A stretch of DNA of 64,000 nt from Eledone cirrhosa (GCA_964016885.1 OZ024762.1:1-64000); one strand, 5' to 3'; positions 1 through 38,215 are shown, numbered from the stretch's first letter. Program-made: numbers and translations. Notes: generated by a model from the sequence alone, not told the origin.

Positions 1-124
1 TATATGTTATATATATGTTATATATATATATATATATATATGTTATATATATATATATATATGTTATATATATATATATATATGTTTTATATATATATAT
101 ATTATATATTTATATATATATATG

Positions 125-167
<43 letters not shown>

Positions 168-207
168 ATATATATATGTTATACATATATATATATATAT
201 ATATATG

Positions 208-250
<43 letters not shown>

Positions 251-302
251 ATATATATATATATATTTATATATATATGTTATATATATATATATATATA
301 TG

Positions 303-348
<46 letters not shown>

Positions 349-493
349 TATATATATAAATATATATGTGTTATATATATATATGTTATATGTATATATA
401 TATGTGATATATATATATATATGTTATATATATATATATATATGTTATATATATATATATACCTTATATATATATGTTATATATATATATATG

Positions 494-563
<70 letters not shown>

Positions 564-701
564 ATATATATATATATATACCTTATATATATATATATAT
601 ATACGTTATATATATATATATATACCTTATATATATATACATACCTTATATATATATATATATACCTTATATATATATATATACCTTATATATATATATA
701 T

Positions 702-745
<44 letters not shown>

Positions 746-865
746 ATATGTATATATATATATACCTTATATATATATATACAGTATATATACATATATA
801 TACCTTATATATATGTGTATATATATATACACACATACATACATTTATATATATATATATATATA
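1..865. repeat. (TA)n-rich microsatellite field
   Basis: Nearly pure TA dinucleotides with interspersed gt/cct variants; source of spurious YIYI ORFs. Confidence 0.95.
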
Positions 866-1036
866 AAATAAAATAAGAAAGTCAAATATGTAAAATTTGG
901 CTTTGTTTATCATAGATTATAGATGTACTACTACATATATTTTGGTGACAGCCATTATTGGCTGTGACCTCTTCAGGCAGTCCGAATTGGTGTGGAAAGA
1001 CAGGTGCACATGTTGTTGAAGTGGGTTTCACTCTGT

Positions 1037-1159
1037 CAATACATCGATATGTCCAGCTCCTGGGTGTGTTGTTAGTCCTCAGAGGACTAGCTGTCACCGA
1101 AATAGAGATAGCTCCGAGTGCTAACAACACACCCAGGAGCTGGACATATCGATGTATTG
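1037..1159. repeat. Perfect 39-bp inverted repeat with 45-bp spacer
   Basis: caatacatcgatatgtccagctcctgggtgtgttgttag (1037-1075) is the exact reverse complement of 1121-1159. Confidence 0.9.
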
Positions 1160-1179
1160 TACTCAGTTTCACCTTAGTA

Positions 1180-1302
1180 TACTGGAGCAACATGAAATGA
1201 AGTTTTTTGCTCAATAACACAACATGCAACCCATTCCAGGAATCGAACCCACGACATTATGATCGTAAGTCCAGCACTATTACTACCAGACCACAGGCAT
1301 CC
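1180..1302 (-). mobile_element. tRNA-derived SINE fragment (family B)
   Basis: Minus strand has A-box-like tggtctggtagt, B-box ggttcgattcc and ttgagcaa...atttcatgttgctcc, resembling the copies at 10575 and 29019. Confidence 0.65.
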
Positions 1303-1419
1303 ACAAAATATAATCTAAAACCACTTTCTTCCGATCACTTTTGCTTCACTTTACCCTTTAGTATTTACATTATTCTACATACACTATTGTATTTTCTGGG
1401 TAAACACTTTATCTCATAT

Positions 1420-1574
1420 AATATCTCACATATCGAATCTATAGGATTTTGATGTTATTCATTTTGAGAACAATACCTTCACATCAGTATGAGAGGCCGG
1501 TTACAGCTGGTTTGAACAGAAAGAGGTGAGAGAATTCTGGTCGGATACAACTGGTTTAAATGCTAAAGTGTTAA
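1420..1574 (-). mobile_element. Partial copy of the TTAA MITE seen at 43471
   Basis: Shares gaggtgagagaattctgg and ggtttaaatg(c/t)taaag in reverse orientation with 43471-43691; ends at ttaa. Confidence 0.55.
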
Positions 1575-1716
1575 TTAGTTCAGTTTTAATTGATTATATA
1601 TATTTATTTTCTTCCTTCTCTGGCCTCCTTTGTTCAATTGTTATCCATAAATTATCTTATTTCCCTATTTATTTCCTTATTTATTTATTTCTGTATTTAT
1701 TTGTCACCTTTGTCAG

Positions 1717-2165
1717 TTGCCGACCAAGACGGTGGAATGTTATCAGACACGTTTACACGAAGGACGGAAATCCGGACAGTTTTATATTCGTTAAACCATT
1801 CTGAATATCACGGTATGCAACCAACGGCAATAGTACAGCTGGAGAACCAACATGAAACTCCCAGACCACCGGAAATACATCCGAGTGCAAACACAAGGTC
1901 ATCTTTATTACAAACACAATCATCCGATGGCTGGTCGGATTACGGTTCGAGAGGCACTGCGTTGCCTGTCAGAAATATGATAGTTTCTGCCGTCGACACC
2001 ACAACAGCAACCACCACCACTACTACTACTACTACCACTACTGATGATACTACTAACAATACAGACTTAAACACTGAAAACAACATAAAACATTCCACTG
2101 TAAAGATTTCTTTGTGTTCGAATTCGTTGTTTAAGAAACAAGACGTTGGGGAAGTCGTCGTTTAA
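1717..2165 (+). CDS. Possible terminal coding exon of an upstream gene (unknown product)
   Basis: Long pyrimidine tract and tttgtcag acceptor (1716), then ~149 codons of non-microsatellite sequence with a Thr run ending ...KKQDVGEVVV*; AATAAA at 2335. Reading frame not certain. Confidence 0.4.
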
Positions 2166-2708
2166 GAAAGAATCTCTGAAAAGGAAAAAAAAAAAGAAAA
2201 AATAAGGAAAAATATAGAAAAATACAACACAAACATATTGAAAAATGTTTGAAAATAATTTCTTTCCTTTTTTTTCTTCTGTTTCGTCTTGAAGGATATT
2301 TTGTGATAAATTCAATAGATTAACATTTACAACAAATAAATCCAGGGACGCAACAGGAACAGCCAAGTACGCACAAACACATCAAGCATGCATACAATCA
2401 TTGTAGAGGTGGGAAGTGTTGGTGGAGGGATTAGAGTGTAGAATGAAATGGCTGTAAGTATATAGATGTATGTATGTGTGTATATATATCATCATCATCA
2501 TCATCATCGTTTAACGTCCGTGTTCCACGCTTGCATGGGTTTGGACGGGGGTTTTCCCACTTGAGGCAAGAGTGATTGTCTTGCTCGCATAGGACTGTCT
2601 GGCGGGTTTTCTACAGCTGGATGCCCTTCCTAACACCAACCACATTTATGTGTGTGTATGTATATATATACGTATATGTGTGTATGTATATACATACGTA
2701 TATGTGTG

Positions 2709-2739
<31 letters not shown>

Positions 2740-3036
2740 ATATATATATATTTATATACATATACATATATATATGTGTGTATATATATATATTTATATA
2801 CATATATATATATGTGTATATATATATATGTATATATACATATATATATAAATATATATATATGTATTTATATATATATAAGTATATATATATATATATG
2901 TATATGTACATGTATATATACACGTATATATATATGTACATGTATATATATATATAAGTATATATATATATGTATATGTACATGTATATATATATATGTA
3001 TATATATGTACATGTATATATATATGTATATATATG

Positions 3037-3076
<40 letters not shown>

Positions 3077-3741
3077 TTATTCTGGTTAACAGCACTCTGA
3101 GTTCAAATTCCGCCCAAGTTTACTTTGCTTTTAAACCCTTTTGGTGTCTATAAAACTAAGTCGTTGTCCAGGGCAATGTCTATATATTTAAGGCCTAGTC
3201 AAGGACCATGTCTATACAATTAAGGCCCACTCAAGGACAGTGTAATTAAGGCCCTCTTGAGAGCGGCAAATGGGTCAGAAGGCACGTGAGATGAATGTGT
3301 CTAACTTGTAGCATTTGGTCAGTTTCTTTACATTCTGGGTTCAATTCCCAGTATGTCCTACATGGGTGGCAGACTTAATAGGGCACCCAGTATAAAAATA
3401 CGCCCTACCAGATCATTGTGGGGCTTTTTGCAAGGATCACTCTGTTGCAAGCATATGGGTCAGGCCTTTTGTTTCAGGTTACCTCCTGCCTGTGCCCATA
3501 TCTATCATGGGGCTGCTGGAAAAAGGGTTCTGCAACTTAGACTACCCTTCCTGGCTAAACAATAAACAAAATCTGAATCAAAACAACTATAATTCAAACA
3601 GTTTTCATTCTATCCTCCATACATACGATGGACTGAGAGGTAAATATTAGAGGCATAGCACAATTTATTACCTGACCAAACCAGGCAGTGAAATTCTGAA
3701 TTACTTTTATATATATATATATATATGTATATGTATATATG

Positions 3742-3775
<34 letters not shown>

Positions 3776-4769
3776 AATGTATATATTTATATATAATAAC
3801 TAGAAATTGATTAACATATATATAAACATGAATAATCACAGGAGATAATTTTTACAAGTGTGTAACCACACATAGCTAGGTAGGTAACTAAATAAAGTTG
3901 ACCAGAACTTCAAAAATAGATACCTTATAATATGATTAATCTTCCCTGTATATATTCCATTAAAGAAATATATTTCACCAATTAATCGGATGGTAAACCA
4001 CGGAAGTGGAGATTTGGATTTTCAACAAGGAAGAAATTTCCAGCTATCCGCGCTTACACTTCAAGTTCAAATCTGCGACTGGCTATTACCACGTGTTGTA
4101 TTTACTATAAATACACACATCATATTAGCTTCGTCCCAGTGGCATCATGAATAGGGTTATCGACAACTAGAAACAGCAGTTGACTCCTTAATTGTAGAGC
4201 TAACTCTGTTGAAAGGACTCGACTGCTGTTTCTAGAATGAAGAATTTATTGATGCAGGAGTTTTACTAACACGTGTTTCATTACAGTTGCCTAATGGCCT
4301 GCAAATCCTAGATTGTGATGTAATCCACTATTGGCATATGTACATCATCAGTGTAACCGCTGATGTAATACATTGAACTCAACAATATGGTGAGCTGCAT
4401 ATTTTTCTTGTTTGGCACATCCATTGAACATTACATTTATATATTTGTCAGAAATTTCCCTTTCAGTGCGTCACAAATATATAAATATATAAATAAACAC
4501 ACATTAACTGTTATGATAGTTTAGACAGAGAATAATGGATTAAGTGTGTAGAAGAATGAAAGAATAAGAGAATATATAGGTGAATAAATAACAGATACTC
4601 CGGTTAATGAAATAATTCGTCAATTTTTATTTAAACTAAAAAAAGTCCATTACAGAGAATCGTTATTGAGTCTAAGATAAAAATATGAATAAAGAATGGC
4701 TGGATTTGGAGCTGGATTTTGTTTCAAGTTAGAACCAAATTGGTGAAGATTGTATTGGAGTTGTACCAT

Positions 4770-4855
4770 CTGAAAATATAGAAAAATATATAATCATTGC
4801 TGTGGTTGTAGTGGTGGTGGTGGTGGAGGAGGAGGTGTTTGGGGTAGTGTTGTTG

Positions 4856-4887
<32 letters not shown>

Positions 4888-4927
4888 GGTGGTGGTTGTT
4901 GCTAAATAATAAAAACAAAATATTTAC
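4770..4927 (-). other. Predicted 3'UTR intron of the long paralogue (158 nt)
   Basis: Donor AAAG|gtaaat 40 nt after the stop, acceptor ttttctatattttcag|; mirrored in the other arm; AATAAA at 4626-4631 (minus). Confidence 0.65.
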
Positions 4928-4967
4928 CTTTGATCACGCGAAACCATTCCTGGTGAAATCTAACATT

Positions 4968-6959
4968 TCAACGACCAATAATTCCGTTATCGTCAGTGTG
5001 GTGAGTAGGGGTACTCCAGCGCCAGTTGGGGGTACTTCTACGCCAGTCTGGGGTACTTCTACGCCAGTCTGGGGTACTTCTTCGCCAGTCTGGGGTACTC
5101 CACCGCCAGTTGGGGGTACTTCTACGCCAGTCTGGGGTACTCCAGCGCCAGTCTGGAGTACTTCTACGCCAGTCTGGGGTACTTCTACGCCAGTCTGGGG
5201 TACTTCTACGCCAGTCTGGGGTACTTCTTCGCCAGTCTGGGGTACTCCAACGCCAGTTGGGGGTACTTCTACGCCAGTCTGGGGTACTTCTACGCCAGTC
5301 TGGGGTACTTCTTCGCCAGTCTGGGGTACTCCACCGCCAGTTGGGGGTACTTCTACGCCAGTCTGGGGTACTTCTACGCCAGTCTGGGGTACTCCAGCGC
5401 CAGTTGGGGGTACTTCTTCGCCAGTCTGGGGTACTTCTACGCCAGTCTGGGGTACTTCTACGCCAGTCTGGGGTACTCCAGCGCCAGTTGGGGGTACTTC
5501 TGCGCCAGTCTGGGGTACTTCTACGCCAGTCTGGGGTACTCCAACGCCAGTTGGGTGTACTTCTTCGCCAGTCTGGGGTACTCCAGCGCCAGTTGGGGGT
5601 ACTTCTTCGCCAGTCTGGGGTACTCCAACGCCAGTTGGGGGTACTTCTACGCCAGTCTGGGGTACTTCTACGCCAGTCTGGGGTACTTCTTCGCCAGTCT
5701 GGGGTACTCCACCGCCAGTTGGGGGTACTTCTACGCCAGTCTGGGGTACTTCTACGCCAGTCTGGGGTACTCCAGCGCCAGTTGGGGGTACTTCTTCGCC
5801 AGTCTGGGGTACTTCTACGCCAGTCTGGGGTACTTCTACGCCAGTCTGGGGTACTCCAGCGCCAGTTGGGGGTACTTCTGCGCCAGTCTGGGGTACTTCT
5901 ACGCCAGTCTGGGGTACTCCAACGCCAGTTGGGTGTACTTCTTCGCCAGTCTGGGGTACTCCAGCGCCAGTTGGGGGTACTTCTGCGCCAGTCTGGGGTA
6001 CTCCAGCGCCACCATGGGGAGTCAGAAGTGTATCTTGGGTAGTAGGGTGTTGTACCCCATCTGGGATAATTAGGGGTTTGACAAGGTGTTGTACCCCATC
6101 TGGGGTAGTCTGTGTAGCGAGGTGTGGTCCCCCATCTGGGGTAAACTGTGTATCTCGGGTAGGAGGGTGTTGTACCCCATCTGGGATAATTAGGGGTTTG
6201 ACAAGGTGTTGTACCCCATCTGGTGTAGCGAGGTGTGGTCCCCCATCTGGGGTAAACTGTGTATCTCGGGTAGGAGGGTGTTGTACCCCATCTGGGATAA
6301 TTAGGGGTTTGACAAGGTGTTGTACCCCATCTGGGGTAGTCTGTGTAGCGAGGTGTGGTCCCCCATCTTGGGTAAACTGTGTATCTCGGGTAGGAGGGTG
6401 TTGTACCCCATCTGGGATAATTAGGTGTTTGACAAGGTGTGGTCCCCCATCTGGGGTAATCTGTGTATCTCGGGTAGGAGGGTGTTGTACCCCATCTGGG
6501 GTAGTCTGTGTATCTCGGGTAGCGAGGTGTGGTTCCCCATCTTGGGTAGTCTGTGTATCTCGGGTAGCGAGGTGTGGTTCCCCATCTTGGGTAGTCGGTG
6601 TATCTCGGGTAACCACGTGTGGTTCCCCATTTGGGGTAGTCGGTGTAACTAGGAGTGCTCCACCCCCATCTGCTGGGGGAATCAGAAGTGTACCTTGGGT
6701 AGCGAGGTGTGGTACCCCTTCTGTAGTAGTCGGTGCTCCAATGTCTATAAGCCGACCTCTTCGACTTAGCGGCAGCATCATTTGGAAGGGAGGTAACAAA
6801 GCTAGCTCCACTGTCTTTCTTTTCCTCTGACTCTTTCAATATCTGTCCAGTAGGTGGAGCTACGGTGATGGCTACTTTGGCTTCACTTCCATTGAAGGTG
6901 AAATAGCAGAGAAGGACCGTTAGCAGGGAAGCCCCGCACAAGTAGAAGGAAGGTCTCAT
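4968..6959 (-). CDS. Secreted Trp/Arg/Tyr-rich tandem-repeat protein, long paralogue (663 aa)
   Basis: ATG at 6959; signal peptide MRPSFYLCGASLLTVLLCYFTFNGSEA; KSKR processing site; 15 WGTT-containing Tyr-rich units (4 with CQTPN); 47 x 21-bp heptads STP[D/N]WR[R/W]. Much of the repeat variation is at synonymous Arg/Pro third positions in this frame. TATA and Inr upstream. Confidence 0.88.
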   Translation of the reverse strand: MRPSFYLCGASLLTVLLCYFTFNGSEAKVAITVAPPTGQILKESEEKKDSGASFVTSLPNDAAAKSKRSAYRHWSTDYYRRGTTPRYPRYTSDSPSRWGWSTPSYTDYPKWGTTRGYPRYTDYPRWGTTPRYPRYTDYPRWGTTPRYPRYTDYPRWGTTPSYPRYTDYPRWGTTPCQTPNYPRWGTTPSYPRYTVYPRWGTTPRYTDYPRWGTTPCQTPNYPRWGTTPSYPRYTVYPRWGTTPRYTRWGTTPCQTPNYPRWGTTPSYPRYTVYPRWGTTPRYTDYPRWGTTPCQTPNYPRWGTTPYYPRYTSDSPWWRWSTPDWRRSTPNWRWSTPDWRRSTPNWRWSTPDWRRSTPDWRRSTPNWRWSTPDWRRSTPDWRRSTPDWRRSTPNWRWSTPDWRRSTPDWRRSTPNWRWSTPDWRRSTPDWRRSTPDWRRSTPNWRWSTPDWRRSTPNWRWSTPDWRRSTPNWRWSTPDWRRSTPDWRRSTPNWRWSTPDWRRSTPDWRRSTPDWRRSTPNWRWSTPDWRRSTPDWRRSTPNWRWSTPDWRRSTPDWRRSTPDWRRSTPNWRWSTPDWRRSTPDWRRSTPDWRRSTPDWRRSTPDWRWSTPDWRRSTPNWRWSTPDWRRSTPDWRRSTPDWRRSTPNWRWSTPTHHTDDNGIIGR

Positions 6960-7008
6960 AGCTGCTGGCAGTGGTTGTGTGTCTTTTCCAGAACACACCG
7001 TAACCAGG

Positions 7009-7045
7009 AACTGACGAAATATACTCAGAAGTGAGTCCTTTTATA
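7009..7045 (-). promoter_or_regulatory. TATA box (7039-7045) and Inr TCAGTT (7009-7014) of the minus paralogue
   Basis: TATAAAA ~30 nt upstream of a TCAKTY-type initiator, ~50 nt before the ATG. Confidence 0.75.
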
Positions 7046-7395
7046 AGGCAGAGCTTCTATTGATCCTTGCAGTACATGCACGCAGGTGTAACTAACAACT
7101 AAATCTATGAAGGTATGTATGTTTACACATATGTAGATAAACACCAGATCAGGTATATATATATATACATACCTATATATATATATATAGGTATGTATGT
7201 ATATATATATATATACATACCTGATCTGGTGTTTATCTACATATATATATACCTATATATATATATAGGTATGTATATATATATATACCTGATCTGGTGT
7301 TTATCTACATATGTGTAAACATACATACCTTCATAGATTTAGTTGTTAGTTACACCTGCGTGCATGTACTGCAAGGATCAATAGAAGCTCTGCCT

Positions 7396-7432
7396 TATAA
7401 AAGGACTCACTTCTGAGTATATTTCGTCAGTT
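7396..7432 (+). promoter_or_regulatory. TATA box (7396-7402) and Inr TCAGTT (7427-7432) of the plus paralogue
   Basis: Exact mirror of the minus-strand promoter; E-box CACCTG at 7353-7358. Confidence 0.75.
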
Positions 7433-7481
7433 CCTGGTTACGGTGTGTTCTGGAAAAGACACACAACCACTGCCAGCAGCT

Positions 7482-8597
7482 ATGAGACCTTCCTTCTACT
7501 TGTGCGGGGCTTCCCTGCTAACGGTCCTTCTCTGCTATTTCACCTTCAATGGAAGTGAAGCCAAAGTAGCCATCACCGTAGCTCCACCTACTGGACAGAT
7601 ATTGAAAGAGTCAGAGGAAAAGAAAGACAGTGGAGCTAGCTTTGTTACCTCCCTTCCAAATGATGCTGCCGCTAAGTCGAAGAGGTCGGCTTATAGACAT
7701 TGGAGCACCGACTACTACAGAAGGGGTACCACACCTCGCTACCCAAGGTACACTTCTGATTCCCCCAGCAGATGGGGGTGGAGCACTCCTAGTTACACCG
7801 ACTACCCCAAATGGGGAACCACACGTGGTTACCCGAGATACACCGACTACCCCAGATGGGGGACCACACCTCGCTACCCGAGATACACAGACTACCCCAG
7901 ATGGGGAACCACACCTCGCTACCCGAGATACACAGACTACCCCAGATGGGGTACAACACCCTCCTACCCGAGATACACTTCTGACTCCCCATGGTGGCGC
8001 TGGAGTACCCCAGACTGGCGAAGGAGTACCCCTGACTGGCGAAGGAGTACCCCTGACTGGCGGTGGAGTACCCCTGACTGGCATAGGAGTACCCCTGACT
8101 GGCGGTGGAGTACCCCTGACTGGCGTAGAAGTACCCCAGACTGGCGAAGAAGTACCCCAGACTGGCGGTGGAGTACCCCAGACTGGCGAAGAAGTACCCC
8201 AGACTGGCGGTGGAGTACCCCAGACTGGCGTAGAAGTACCCCCCACTGGCGCTGGAGTACCCCAGACTGGCGCAGAAGTACCCCCAACTGGCGCTGGAGT
8301 ACCCCAGACTGGCGCAGAAGTACCCCCCACTGGCGCTGGAGTACTCCAGACTGGCGCAGAAGTACCCCCAACTGGCGCTGGAGTACCCCAGACTGGCGCA
8401 GAAGTACCCCCAACTGGCGCTGGAGTACCCCAGACTGGCGCAGAAGTACCCCCCACTGGCGCTGGAGTACCCCAGACTGGCGCAGAAGTACCCCCAACTG
8501 GCGCTGGAGTACCCCAGACTGGCGCAGAAGTACCCCCAACTGGCGCTGGAGTACTCCTACTCACCACACTGACGATAACAGAATTATTGGTCGTTGA
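7482..8597 (+). CDS. Secreted Trp/Arg/Tyr-rich tandem-repeat protein, short paralogue (371 aa)
   Basis: ATG at 7482; same signal peptide and KSKR site as the minus copy; 4 x 15-aa YTDYPRWGTTPRYPR-type units; 26 heptads STP[D/N/H]W[R/H][R/W]; C-terminal tail STPTHHTDDNRIIGR*. Confidence 0.88.
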   Translation: MRPSFYLCGASLLTVLLCYFTFNGSEAKVAITVAPPTGQILKESEEKKDSGASFVTSLPNDAAAKSKRSAYRHWSTDYYRRGTTPRYPRYTSDSPSRWGWSTPSYTDYPKWGTTRGYPRYTDYPRWGTTPRYPRYTDYPRWGTTPRYPRYTDYPRWGTTPSYPRYTSDSPWWRWSTPDWRRSTPDWRRSTPDWRWSTPDWHRSTPDWRWSTPDWRRSTPDWRRSTPDWRWSTPDWRRSTPDWRWSTPDWRRSTPHWRWSTPDWRRSTPNWRWSTPDWRRSTPHWRWSTPDWRRSTPNWRWSTPDWRRSTPNWRWSTPDWRRSTPHWRWSTPDWRRSTPNWRWSTPDWRRSTPNWRWSTPTHHTDDNRIIGR

Positions 8598-8637
8598 AAT
8601 GTCGGATTTCACCAGGAATGGTTTCACGTGATCAAAG

Positions 8638-9494
8638 GTAAATATTTTGTTTTTATTATTTAAGGGCGGCTGGGTGGTGGATTGGCAGTATCGGTAGAGG
8701 GTCGGATGACATGCTTTGCAGCATAGAGTTACGGCCCTTTATGATCTGAGTTCAAAGCCCGCCGACGTTAACTTTGCCTTTTATCCTTACGGGGGAGATG
8801 AAATAAAGTACCAGTAATGCACTGGTGTCGATTTCATTGACTTCCTTTCCCTCAAAATTGTTAGCCTTGTGCCTATATAAAAAAACCATTTGAGTTACGG
8901 CCCTTGCCATTCTGAGTTCAAATCCCGCCGAGGTTAACTTTGCCTTTCATCCTTACGGGGTCGATAAAATAAAGTACCAGTAATACTCTGGGTATTTGGT
9001 GGCCTTGTGCCAAAAGTAGAAACAATTATTTTTATTTTTACTCAAACGGATCACCTCCGCCATCATCACCACCACCACCATTATCCTCATTATCATCGCC
9101 ATCATCATCATCAGAATCACCACCACCACCACCACACACACACCACCGCTGCCCCCACCTCCAACAACAACAACAACAACAACACTACCATAATCACCAC
9201 CAATTCCGACACCATCACCATCACCACCACCAACAACAACAGCAACACCATAAACACCACCAATTCCAACACCACCAACACACCACCATTACTACACCAC
9301 CACCACCAACAACAACAACAACACCATAAACTCCACCAATTCCAACACCGCCACCTCAACCACCACCACCACCACTACCAACAACAACAACAACAACGCC
9401 ACCACCAACAACAGCACCGACAACACTACCCCAAACACCTCCACCACCACCACCACAACCACAGCAATGATTATATATTTTTCTATATTTTCAG
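8638..9494 (+). other. Predicted 3'UTR intron of the short paralogue (857 nt)
   Basis: AAAG|gtaaat donor 40 nt after the stop and ttttcag| acceptor at 9494; enlarged by a SINE and a CAC/CAA microsatellite; AATAAA at 9839-9844. Confidence 0.65.
8663..9030 (+). mobile_element. tRNA-derived SINE (family A), one full copy plus a partial tandem copy
   Basis: tggattggcagtatcggtagag A-box region, gagttcaaa B-box, core gcctttcatcctt..ggggtcgataaaataaagtaccagt, tail gtagaaacaattatt; absent from the left arm. Confidence 0.85.
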
Positions 9495-9602
9495 ATGGTA
9501 CAACTCCAATACAATCTTCACCAATTTGGTTCTAACTTGAAACAAAATCCAGCTCCAAATCCAGCCATTCTTTATTTATATTTTTATCTTAGACTCAATA
9601 AC

Positions 9603-9787
9603 TGTTTCTACTTTAGGCACAAGGCCAGCAATTACCCAGTGCATTACTGGTACTTTATTTTATCGACCTCGTAAGGATGAAAGGCAAAGTCAACCTCGGC
9701 GGGACTTGAACTCAGATTGTAAAGGGACGTAACTATGCTGGAAAGCATGGTGTCCGACCCTCTACCGATACTGCCAATCCACTGCCC
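9603..9787 (-). mobile_element. SINE family A insertion with 18-bp target-site duplication
   Basis: tatcttagactcaataac flanks it at 9585-9602 and 9788-9805; the left arm carries a single empty site (~4662-4679). Confidence 0.92.
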
Positions 9788-10251
9788 TATCTTAGACTCA
9801 ATAACGATTCTCTGTAATGGACTTTTTTTTTTAGTTTAAATAAAAATTGACGAATTATTTCATTAACCGGAGTATCTGTTATTTATTCACCTATATATTC
9901 TCTTATTCTTTCATTCTTCTACACACTTAATCCTTTATTCTCTGTCTAAACTATCATAACAGTTAATGTGTATTTATTTATATATTTATATATTTGTCAC
10001 GCACTGAAAGGGAAATTTCTGACAAATATATAAATGTAATGTTCAATGGATGTGCCAAACAAAAGAAAAATGTGCAGCTCACCATATTGTTGAATTCAAT
10101 GTATTACATCAGCGGTTACACTGATGATGTACATATGCCAATAGTGGATTACATCACAATCTAGGATTTGCAGGCCATTAGGCAACTGTAATGAAACACG
10201 TGTTAGTAAAACTCCTGCATCAATAAATTCTTCATTCTTCAGCAAATCCTG

Positions 10252-31767: not shown

Positions 31768-31875
31768 TCACGCAAGAAATAGATCACCAATGTTCTACAA
31801 TAAATACATTATTTGATTTACATATGTTTCATTCTCTAAAGAGGAAAAAAAAGAAAAAAGTTAAGTGCTTCTTAC

Positions 31876-32551
31876 CGCCTCTCCAGATTGGTTTGACATT
31901 CTCGCGGGGTCCGTTTCTATAGGCTGGACGAGTTCTCGCAAGCTTCTTCTCCTTGTTAGCCGGGATCAACGGGAATCTCGTTGCTTGAGGACGCTGTTTC
32001 GGTTTCCACCAGGGGCGTTTCGTGGTCGTCATTGATTCTGCTCTTCCACTCGACCAATTTTTAGAAGTGCTCCTGCCGCCATTTTCTTTGTTACGACGGT
32101 AATAATAATAATAGTTATTACTACGATTATTACCACCTACACTACCTCCACCACCACGATTATTGTCATGATCATGATCATCATCGCCGTCATCACCAGT
32201 ACCGATTGATTTTCTATCATTATCAGATTTTCTCGCACCGGCCGCATCGCTGTTTCTTGGGGTCACCGTATCATTGCTACCAACGTTGTTATTACTTCCA
32301 ACTAACCAACTACAGTCGGCCTTCTTCGGCCAATCACATGTCTGGGTGACTGTATTAAAGTTTAGTTCATCTGGACAGAAGAACTGGTAAAGTTTGCCAC
32401 CCGTGCAACGTATGAAAAGGTTTGGTTTCGTCGGATGACAACGATATTTCGGATCATCTTTACAAGGGAGTCTAGCCCCGTAACTTAGTAACAGGGAAGC
32501 TGAGAAGTACACCAGATGAAACACTATCGCGTTTCTCATTGTTCCGTTCAT
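31876..32551 (-). CDS. Chitin deacetylase, exon 1 (signal peptide, CBM14/peritrophin-A domain, low-complexity linker)
   Basis: Hydrophobic N-terminus (start ATG at 32551 or 32539); CKDDPKYRCHPTKPNLFIRCTGGKLYQFFCPDELNFNTVTQTCDWPKKADC; phase-1 donor GGCG|gtaag joins in frame to exon 2, giving ~550 aa. Confidence 0.88.
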
Positions 32552-36978: not shown

Positions 36979-37946
36979 GATTTCTTTATTGGCCACAAGG
37001 GCTGACACCAAGAAAAACATTACAGACGGCACAGGACGGTACGATGTGAGTTTTGTGCGTGTAAAGATTTTTATTATTTATATAAGAAAAGAAAAAAAAA
37101 GGACATAGAAACGTATATATATATAAACAATAAAAATGAAAATTGAAACAATGAAAAAATTCTCCAATAGGGGGAAACCTCCGAGGGTTACTCGTAGCGA
37201 AAACCACACAAAAGACCACGGCCACCCTGACCACCAGGGCAAGCGCCCTCTCTCAATTTTTCCATTTCTCAAACTACAGGCGTATATTCAGAGCGGTCCC
37301 GTTCACTCGGACCATTCTCGCTACATTCCCCCACCTCTCAACAAACTTGCTAGAAGGCAGCACTTGCCTCTCCACCCTGATTTTCCTCTTCAAGTGAAAC
37401 TTGAAAAAGTTAATTAGGGATTCGCCGAAGCAGAAAGTGTCTGTCTTTAACCCTTTCAATCTTGTCCACCACACAATCTCTTTCGCCATGGCCACCAGGA
37501 AGATGAAAACCGCCTGCCCTTCCTCCTCGAAGGAAGACGGCGAGACCATCTGCACAATGGACTCAGTCGGTAACTGGATCAGTCCTACACGCGACAGCAA
37601 CTGTTCGACATAGCTCCACAAGTCAGCAATGCTCGGGCACTGAACGAGTGCGTGCACGACAGTTTCGTCGCTCTGCGCGCATCTCGGACAGGCTCGGCTG
37701 ACGGCACTTCCGTGCCTGTAGAGCTTATCTCGAACCGGCAACGCTCCCCGGTAGCACTGCAAGGCCAGAGATTTTTGGAAGTTATCCATAGGCCCTGGGC
37801 TGAAAGTTCTCCGGAAGAGAGCAAACAGCTGATCTTCTTCGACACCCAGGATCTCTCCGAGAACGTCGTCGCTCTTCCTCTCCACTAGTCCTCTATAGAA
37901 CGCCGAGGTGGATGTTCCACCGATACTGGTGCCCAGCTGGCAGAGG
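36979..37946 (-). mobile_element. Tx1/L1-clade LINE 3' fragment
   Basis: QCYRGALPVRDKLYRHG...CPRCAQSDETVVHALVQCP...LKRKIRVERQ (zf-RVT region). Confidence 0.85.
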
Positions 37947-37961
37947 GCAATAATAATAATA

Positions 37962-38215
37962 GTGATCACAATATTGCGGCAAAAAAATTTGACAAGCTAC
38001 GAAAGTATAAAAATCTGCTTATTGAAATTGAGAAGATGTGGCACCTCAAGGCTGTTACAATACCAGGGATTGTGGGAGGACTGGGAATGATCAAGAAAGG
38101 ATCAGAACAATATTTGCGAATGATTCCTGGTTTATCCTCTCTGCATCAGGTGCAAAAAATTGTTTTGACTGGTACTGCACACGTATTCAGAAGAGCACTA
38201 TCTCTGTAAGATTGA
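37962..38215 (+). mobile_element. R4/Dong-like RLE retrotransposon 3' fragment
   Basis: Translation IVGGLGMIKKGSEQYLRMIPGLSSLHQVQKIVLTGTAHVFRRALSL* resembles the R4/Dong C-terminus; adjoins a TAA repeat. Confidence 0.6.

Follow-up and report, generated by a model that had tools for sequence, protein, structure and literature searches.

A 6-kb inverted repeat in the assembled sequence of Eledone cirrhosa that carries a head-to-head pair of orphan Trp/Arg repeat genes

Organisation of the locus

The first 64,000 nucleotides of the Eledone cirrhosa sequence OZ024762.1 (GCA_964016885.1; one strand, numbered from its first letter), referred to here as the window, contain an inverted repeat of about 6 kb in which two paralogous genes stand head to head (Table 1). 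In the arm alignment, the reverse complement of positions 4234 to ~7190 matches ~7251-10238, and the mirror axis of the arms lies at 7220.5 (7153+7288), in agreement with the original prediction that genes and promoters are mirrored about ~7220. The segment 6589-7187 is an exact mirror of 7254-7852 over 599 bp, for which chance cannot account. Two structural features of a divergent paralogue pair were thus found: paralogous genes arranged head to head, and inverted-repeat intergenic DNA with a short spacer (599-bp arms around 66 bp). The two copies of the 68-bp tandem duplication that includes the spacer (7170-7312) differ by small indels, and a perfect 34-bp palindrome, centred on 7181/7182, lies beside the spacer. 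The window is AT-rich and full of (TA)n tracts; at the centre of the repeat, TA-rich DNA extends over ~130 bp only. An Rfam scan returned 23 matches, every one of them under the gathering score and nothing but TA-rich hairpins.

Table 1. Coordinates of the features of the inverted repeat and its borders in the window
Feature	Position	Strand	Remarks
Left arm, whole gene, promoter to poly(A) signal	4234..7187	-	arm alignment
Right arm, whole gene, extra SINEs and longer intron	7254..10238	+	arm alignment
Spacer, TA-rich	7188..7253	.	66 bp, inside 68-bp tandem duplication
Perfectly identical core	6589..7852	.	599 bp each side of spacer
Left open reading frame P0002	4968..6959	-	663 aa; starts 6959; 145-aa extra block, 47 heptads
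Right open reading frame P0001	7482..8597	+	371 aa; same plan as left, 26 heptads
Left TATA box (TATAAAA), predicted	7039..7045	-	
Right TATA box, predicted	7396..7402	+	TATAAAA
Left initiator-like TCAGTT	7009..7014	-	predicted +1 at 7012; mirror of 7429
Right initiator-like TCAGTT	7427..7432	+	predicted +1 at 7429
E-box-like hexamer CAGGTG, candidate, left copy	7083..7088	.	
E-box CACCTG, candidate	7353..7358	.	mirror of CAGGTG
Left 3'-UTR intron, predicted GT-AG	4770..4927	-	158 bp
Right 3'-UTR intron, predicted GT-AG	8638..9494	+	857 bp; two SINE pieces and CAC/CAA microsatellite inside
Left AATAAA	4245..4250	-	
Right AATAAA	10222..10227	+	arm homology stops 11 nt beyond
Left 21-bp heptad array	5008..6011	-	
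Right 21-bp heptad array	7995..8557	+	
Antisense SINE, right 3' UTR	9585..9805	-	SINE body 9603-9787 plus 18-bp target-site duplication
High-copy element, unclassified	3850..4235	.	abuts left arm; may extend left of 3850
Hairpin outside right arm	10256..10312	.	perfect 27-bp stem, 3-nt loop
UTR, untranslated region; SINE, short interspersed element.

Each arm carries one complete gene, with a TATA box, an initiator, an open reading frame (ORF), an intron in the 3' untranslated region (3' UTR) and a poly(A) signal, and the two start codons are separated by 522 bp. The predicted 3'-UTR intron is the sole intron, so all the coding sequence would lie in exon 1. It opens 40 nt past the stop codon (8598-8637 in the right arm, 4928-4967 in the left). 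Introns that lie within 50-55 nt of the stop escape nonsense-mediated decay, and the distance in both genes is inside this limit.

The predicted start sites, 7012 and 7429, are on opposite strands and 417 bp apart, which is the spacing of ~420 bp originally proposed and is within the 1 kb used to define bidirectional promoters. A classical bidirectional promoter is one shared region, usually TATA-less and GC/CpG-rich, that serves both genes. No such region was found between the Eledone genes; instead, two separate TATA boxes and initiators flank an AT-rich centre. On these sequence motifs, the intergenic region is best described as two complete one-way TATA/initiator promoters placed back to back, and the term bidirectional promoter, used in the original prediction, is not supported. 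Nevertheless, the proximal 170 bp of both promoters are identical, for which reason co-regulation is to be expected. As a co-regulated dosage unit the pair is thus supported to the extent that identical proximal promoters and intact ORFs predict co-expression. A long and a short product would likewise be expected, as proposed, but as the products of paralogues and not as isoforms.

The encoded protein

Both ORFs share one plan: a signal-peptide-like start with its hydrophobicity peak at residues 6-22, a pro-like segment of ~40 residues that ends in KSKR (residues 65-68), a set of 15-residue repeats, the heptads and a C-terminal IIGR. The 15-residue repeats are rich in Tyr, Pro and Arg (YPRWGTTP-type) and have no dibasic sites, and the heptads follow the consensus W-R-(R/W)-S-T-P-(D/N/H) with a strict 7-residue period. 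RR occurs in 13 of the 26 right and 32 of the 47 left heptads, with RW or HR elsewhere; counted over the whole proteins, there are 14 and 33 RR pairs. The chain that follows KSKR has an isoelectric point of ~11.5 and contains ~19% Arg, 14-16% Trp, 16-17% Thr, 14-16% Pro and 10-12% Ser, so that about one third of it is Trp plus Arg.

The Trp/Arg reading frame is under purifying selection. Of 14 single-step differences between heptad units, 12 are synonymous in this frame, vs 2 and 1 in the two remaining sense frames, and the substitutions in the shared 15-residue repeats are all silent (3/3). The VPQTG-type frame was rejected as the coding frame, with only 2 of the 14 differences synonymous. 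The antisense frame was also rejected; its 10/14 synonymous differences reflect third positions that it shares with the true frame.

No relatives of the protein were recovered. An exact sequence look-up gave no match, and Pfam assigned 0 families to both proteins. Word-seeded searches, which took in proteins of up to 650 aa, gave no match at E<=0.01 with residues 1-110 against proteins of 204-650 aa or with residues 1-200 against proteins of 30-203 aa. A phmmer search of 1.84 billion representatives of all lengths yielded 733 matches, of which the best 150 were scanned for motifs and 12 were read by eye; none of these 150 starts before residue 85 or holds two diagnostic motifs, and the matches examined are unrelated periodic repeats. 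The best score in an Atlas search was 0.76, to low-complexity clusters, with nothing usable. A single-sequence AlphaFold model had a mean predicted local distance difference test score of 37.7 and no confident fold. As a control, an exon of the neighbouring deacetylase gene retrieved proteins of Octopus, Argonauta and gastropods, so the collection searched does include molluscan proteomes, although repeat genes that lack annotation could have escaped these homology searches.

Differences between the arms

As originally proposed, the arms are unequal in repeat number, substitutions and SINE content. The heptads number 26 in the right gene vs 47 in the left, and of the 16 heptad unit types, 5 are common to both arms, 6 are found in the right arm only and 5 in the left only. 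A 145-codon block, which adds four Cys, is confined to the left gene. The ORFs differ by 876 nt and the frame is kept.

The clearest insertion is the antisense SINE in the right 3' UTR. Its target-site duplication (TSD) copies are at 9585-9602 and 9788-9805, and the corresponding left-arm site, 4662-4679, is empty, which bears out the claim of a filled versus an empty site. The SINE belongs to a family that we take to resemble octopus SINEs. Two further SINE pieces, at 8662-9031, are present in the right intron only; they have no clear TSD, and a deletion from the left arm is therefore also possible. The predicted introns differ in length by 699 bp.

Substitutions in unique sequence are distributed unevenly along the arms, with 0 in 505 bp of inner sequence vs 10 in 671 bp of outer sequence (Fisher p = 0.0065). 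The outer unique sequence has a divergence of 1.5%. Neither this outward divergence nor the orphan protein was part of the original prediction.

Model for the origin and function of the gene pair

We propose that the pair arose by inverted duplication of a compact gene and that the fold occurred at a (TA)n tract, self-complementary and located ~200 bp upstream of the TATA box. Long palindromic duplications can be seeded by short inverted repeats (PMC7999016). The 68-bp duplication would lend the centre its small asymmetry. With identical proximal promoters, both genes would fire outward in the same cells and double the dose of a bulk secreted protein. Pairing between the arms, through arm-to-arm conversion or hairpin repair, would keep the core identical, possibly helped by the negative supercoiling that divergent transcription generates, while SINEs, substitutions and repeat slippage would pile up farther from the centre.

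The predicted product is a proprotein that would be secreted, cleaved C-terminal to the dibasic KR at residue 68 and possibly amidated at its C-terminus (-GR). Its mature chain is predicted to be basic and disordered, with Trp and Arg acting as cation-pi stickers and Ser/Thr-Pro as spacers, the latter likely O-glycosylated. The alternation of Arg and Trp at heptad position 3 fits a chain in which composition matters more than a fixed RR cleavage site. The role that we suggest is that of a bulk extracellular matrix, adhesive or chitin-associated protein; a secreted structural role is somewhat favoured, and the link to chitin, which is based only on the neighbouring deacetylase gene, is weak. 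For the combined account, i.e., an inverted duplication with a conversion-kept core that supplies a high dose of a secreted matrix or adhesive protein, we estimate a probability of about 55%.

A bolder and less probable version of this account can be put forward tentatively. The protein might be the first described of a class of molluscan, probably cephalopod, secreted Trp/Arg heptad materials that coacervate by cation-pi contacts onto chitin or onto egg or skin surfaces, with the palindrome serving as a self-repairing two-copy unit. Divergent transcription would extrude a cruciform at the TA centre and so keep the promoter, signal peptide and pro-region identical, and the repeat tails would diversify into short Cys-free and long Cys-bearing mature chains.

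Similar arrangements in other animals

The layout of the Eledone pair closely resembles that of F44E5.4/F44E5.5 of Caenorhabditis elegans, which we take to be hsp70 genes. Zhao et al. (2007, PMC1803023) described these divergent genes as 100% identical, with a 446-bp intergenic region composed of two 160-bp arms and a 126-bp spacer; orthologues are present in C. briggsae and C. remanei, and arm-to-arm homogenisation was proposed. The same paper reports a nematode divergent pair with 100% identity in the first 297 nt and divergence farther out (PMC1803023). In both animals, divergent paralogues are arranged around an inverted repeat, which in Eledone measures 522 bp, with arms of ~228 bp and the 66-bp spacer. 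The Eledone spacer is shorter and itself TA-palindromic, unlike that of F44E5.4/F44E5.5, and the cargo is an orphan secreted repeat protein.

The hsp16-1/hsp16-48 genes of C. elegans are arranged in an inverted repeat of 3.8 kb (Russnak and Candido 1985; PMC3966223, PMC1803023). Like the Eledone locus, it is a multi-kb inverted duplication of whole genes, whose identity has been ascribed to gene conversion. However, the hsp16 unit is a two-gene module with a 416-bp unique spacer and arms that are 100% identical throughout, whereas in Eledone a single gene was duplicated and the arms diverge outward. The centre can also be compared with palindromic AT-rich repeats (PATRRs; PMC7999016), since both are AT-rich and near-perfect and could extrude a cruciform; PATRRs, however, span several hundred bp with >90% AT, whereas the TA-rich centre of Eledone has ~130 bp and its arms are genes. 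Of the linked young duplicates in six animals, 10-21% are arranged head to head (PMC3194840, Table 2), and the layout is thus a common one.

The architecture is thus already known from nematodes, and the palindrome adds a molluscan case. Because nematode heat-shock genes have this layout, the part that calls for explanation is the protein and not the palindrome. Further likenesses among matrix proteins are found in mussel foot and squid beak proteins. The chiton protein RTMP1 (PMC6351634) shares with the Eledone product a signal peptide, low-complexity repeats, predicted disorder, an aromatic-rich segment and the lack of a homologue, a likeness of type only, taken from its description. RTMP1 is Gly/Ser-rich with Trp/Phe- and His-rich regions, whereas the Eledone protein is rich in Arg, Trp, Thr and Pro with a 7-residue period. 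The literature searched, mostly papers open without subscription, yielded no cephalopod head-to-head palindrome in a single targeted search, none of the peptide motifs and no comparable octopus protein.

The locus lends itself to a compact test of arm-to-arm conversion, as its identical core of 599 bp is sharply bounded and the SINEs beyond it are datable. Its larger value lies in a Trp/Arg heptad protein with a selected frame and no relatives found in the searches. A secreted adhesive, cuticular or antimicrobial material, if this is what the genes encode, would represent a new natural sequence design, for which the two natural protein lengths would provide a built-in comparison.

Evaluation of alternative explanations

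Several observations count against the account proposed above, and they are considered here together with the alternatives on which they bear. The first alternative is a young duplication without ongoing conversion, in which purifying selection on the promoter and 5' coding sequence has kept the core. The total substitution divergence is low, and when the comparison is restricted to 245 inner non-coding and four-fold sites, the gradient has only p = 0.07; selection on promoter and coding sequence could therefore account for part of it. Nevertheless, 599 bp have remained untouched in arms that differ by at least one SINE, the 145-codon block and the 699-bp intron difference, and 11 of the 16 heptad unit types are private to one arm. 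We regard the young duplication as doubtful, though a serious candidate, and consider it probable that the identity of the core stems from conversion rather than from youth alone.

With regard to function, the analyses listed above (Pfam, phmmer, word-seeded, Atlas and AlphaFold) provide no homologue, domain or confident fold to back any role, and it is sequence motifs alone that suggest the signal peptide, cleavage, amidation and glycosylation. The main functional rival is a polyprotein precursor in which convertases would cut at RR to release short Trp/Arg antimicrobial, signalling or venom-gland peptides. The signal-peptide-like start, the KR site, the many RR pairs (14 and 33) and the C-terminal -GR would suit such a precursor, and its cationic, Trp/Arg-rich make-up is like that of known Trp-rich antimicrobial peptides (reviewed in PMC6017362). 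However, RW replaces RR in about a third to half of the heptads, and the Tyr/Pro-rich 15-residue repeats offer no dibasic sites for cutting. Additionally, the internal peptides would have no glycines for amidation and, after cutting and trimming, would be short, Asp-containing and barely cationic. A polyprotein is thus unlikely, and a secreted matrix or adhesive protein is the reading that we retain.

As to how the duplication arose, the high-copy element whose end lies at 4234-4235 might have produced it by alternative (sister-chromatid) transposition, a mechanism known from maize Ac/Ds; the palindrome would then be fused at its centre, and one of the arms would have an element end at its outer edge. 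The left arm does end at most 2 bases from the end of this element and its terminal stem-loop. Nevertheless, the element is unclassified, the boundary is accounted for just as well by a later insertion immediately downstream of the poly(A) signal, and at the end of the right arm a repeat also starts within ~15-50 bp. A transposon origin is, in our view, quite unlikely next to an inverted duplication that folded at the (TA)n tract.

A different kind of objection is that the palindrome was created during assembly, when a fold-back read at the TA-rich hairpin caused two alleles of the same gene to be joined head to head; the core would then owe its identity to fold-back copying, and the outer differences would be ordinary heterozygosity. 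The outer divergence of 1.5% also fits two alleles, SINE presence/absence and differences in repeat length look allelic, and the identity sits exactly beside the centre. Both flanks are repeats, which makes their non-homology a weak test. The read comparison covered 3850-5010, with contigs from runs X1-X3 of one sample and reads from run X4 of another, and none of these reads and contigs crosses the centre. The X1-X3 sample agrees with the window at every letter; it may be the very source of the assembly and does not count as independent confirmation. Moreover, in one X2 contig the empty SINE site is joined to right-arm letters, for which graph chimerism is the likeliest explanation.

The same reads provide evidence that both arms exist. 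The X1-X3 contigs are genomic, since they continue unspliced into the intron and flank. Left-arm letters are found in those of X1 and X3; over 590 nt, the X3 contig shows 0 differences, and its end lies ~28 nt inside the left flank element. All 5 listed right-arm differences (4378, 4400, +TT at 4407, 4536 and +AAA at 4637) are present in X2 and agree exactly with the arm-to-arm alignment, in which 4378, 4400 and 4536 correspond to 10094, 10072 and 9934, and 3 of 3 X4 reads have the right-arm letter at 4536. Both letter sets are thus present in short-read DNA, which excludes base-calling errors as the source of the arm differences as well as an origin from one folded read. The contigs also leave the arm end in two ways, X3 into the left element and X1 and X2 into 43 other letters past 4234, which were taken as right flank from their length only.

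In a fold-back artefact the arms would be identical save for errors, whereas here the SINE site is filled in one and empty in the other and the repeat numbers differ. These differences, together with the substitutions and the two letter sets, uphold the original argument that such an artefact is unlikely. Additionally, the centre is not a clean mirror, since its indel-bearing 68-bp duplication is unlike one folded read, and the homology stops sharply at 4234/10238, beyond which 1-4233 and 10239-64000 are alike only in dispersed repeats. We consider the joining of two alleles improbable, and the 6-kb inverted repeat is very probably a genuine structure, present in the assembled sequence.

Finally, the least probable alternative is a designed unit in which both genes are driven from a single shared bidirectional promoter through its mirrored E-boxes: the 417-bp start distance would put any bound factor near both genes, and the hexamers reported at 7083 and 7353 are indeed there as CAGGTG and CACCTG, but each gene has its own TATA box and initiator, every motif was doubled by construction, so that E-boxes mirrored because the whole promoter was duplicated give no separate evidence for shared control, and four CANNTG hexamers (two mirrored pairs) in 440 bp represent no enrichment.

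Sequences surrounding the inverted repeat

The high-copy element that abuts the left arm has a summed contig word depth of ~2,600-190,000, vs 2.5-9 inside the arm. It terminates in a 69-nt stem-loop (~4167-4235) that ends in CTAG, 11 nt past the left poly(A) signal. On the other side, the hairpin outside the right arm is probably the end of a dispersed repeat; a second copy of 10287-10483 is located at 61311-61496.

A chitin deacetylase gene lies 16-22 kb to the right of the palindrome, with two exons at 26705-27745 (-) and 31829-32548 (-) and the domains CBM_14 and Polysacc_deac_1. Its best named matches are gastropod proteins at 69-74% (Lottia 74%, Littorina 72%), and two others reach 82-83%. 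Among the matches listed, which were proteins of <=564 aa, those of Octopus share only 39-44%, and a true cephalopod orthologue of >564 aa may be hidden from this search. That the enzyme is of the radula type is speculation. Its linker keeps a (K/R)PWW motif common to the gastropod proteins. An origin of the heptad repeats from this linker (KPWW motif) was considered and rejected, as tblastn gave no match outside the arms.

At 1037-1159, an inverted repeat was spotted by eye, its 39-bp arms separated by a loop of 45 nt. Open frames are present at 12029-12805 (+), 15816-16694 (+), 20655-21152 (-) and 37274-37996 (-), which we presume to be fragments resembling non-LTR (long terminal repeat) retrotransposons, and the segments 20646-21070 and 37265-37689 are 71% alike. 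TA/TATG microsatellite tracts of 0.9-2.5 kb occupy 22158-24700, 49230-50080 and 54400-55950.

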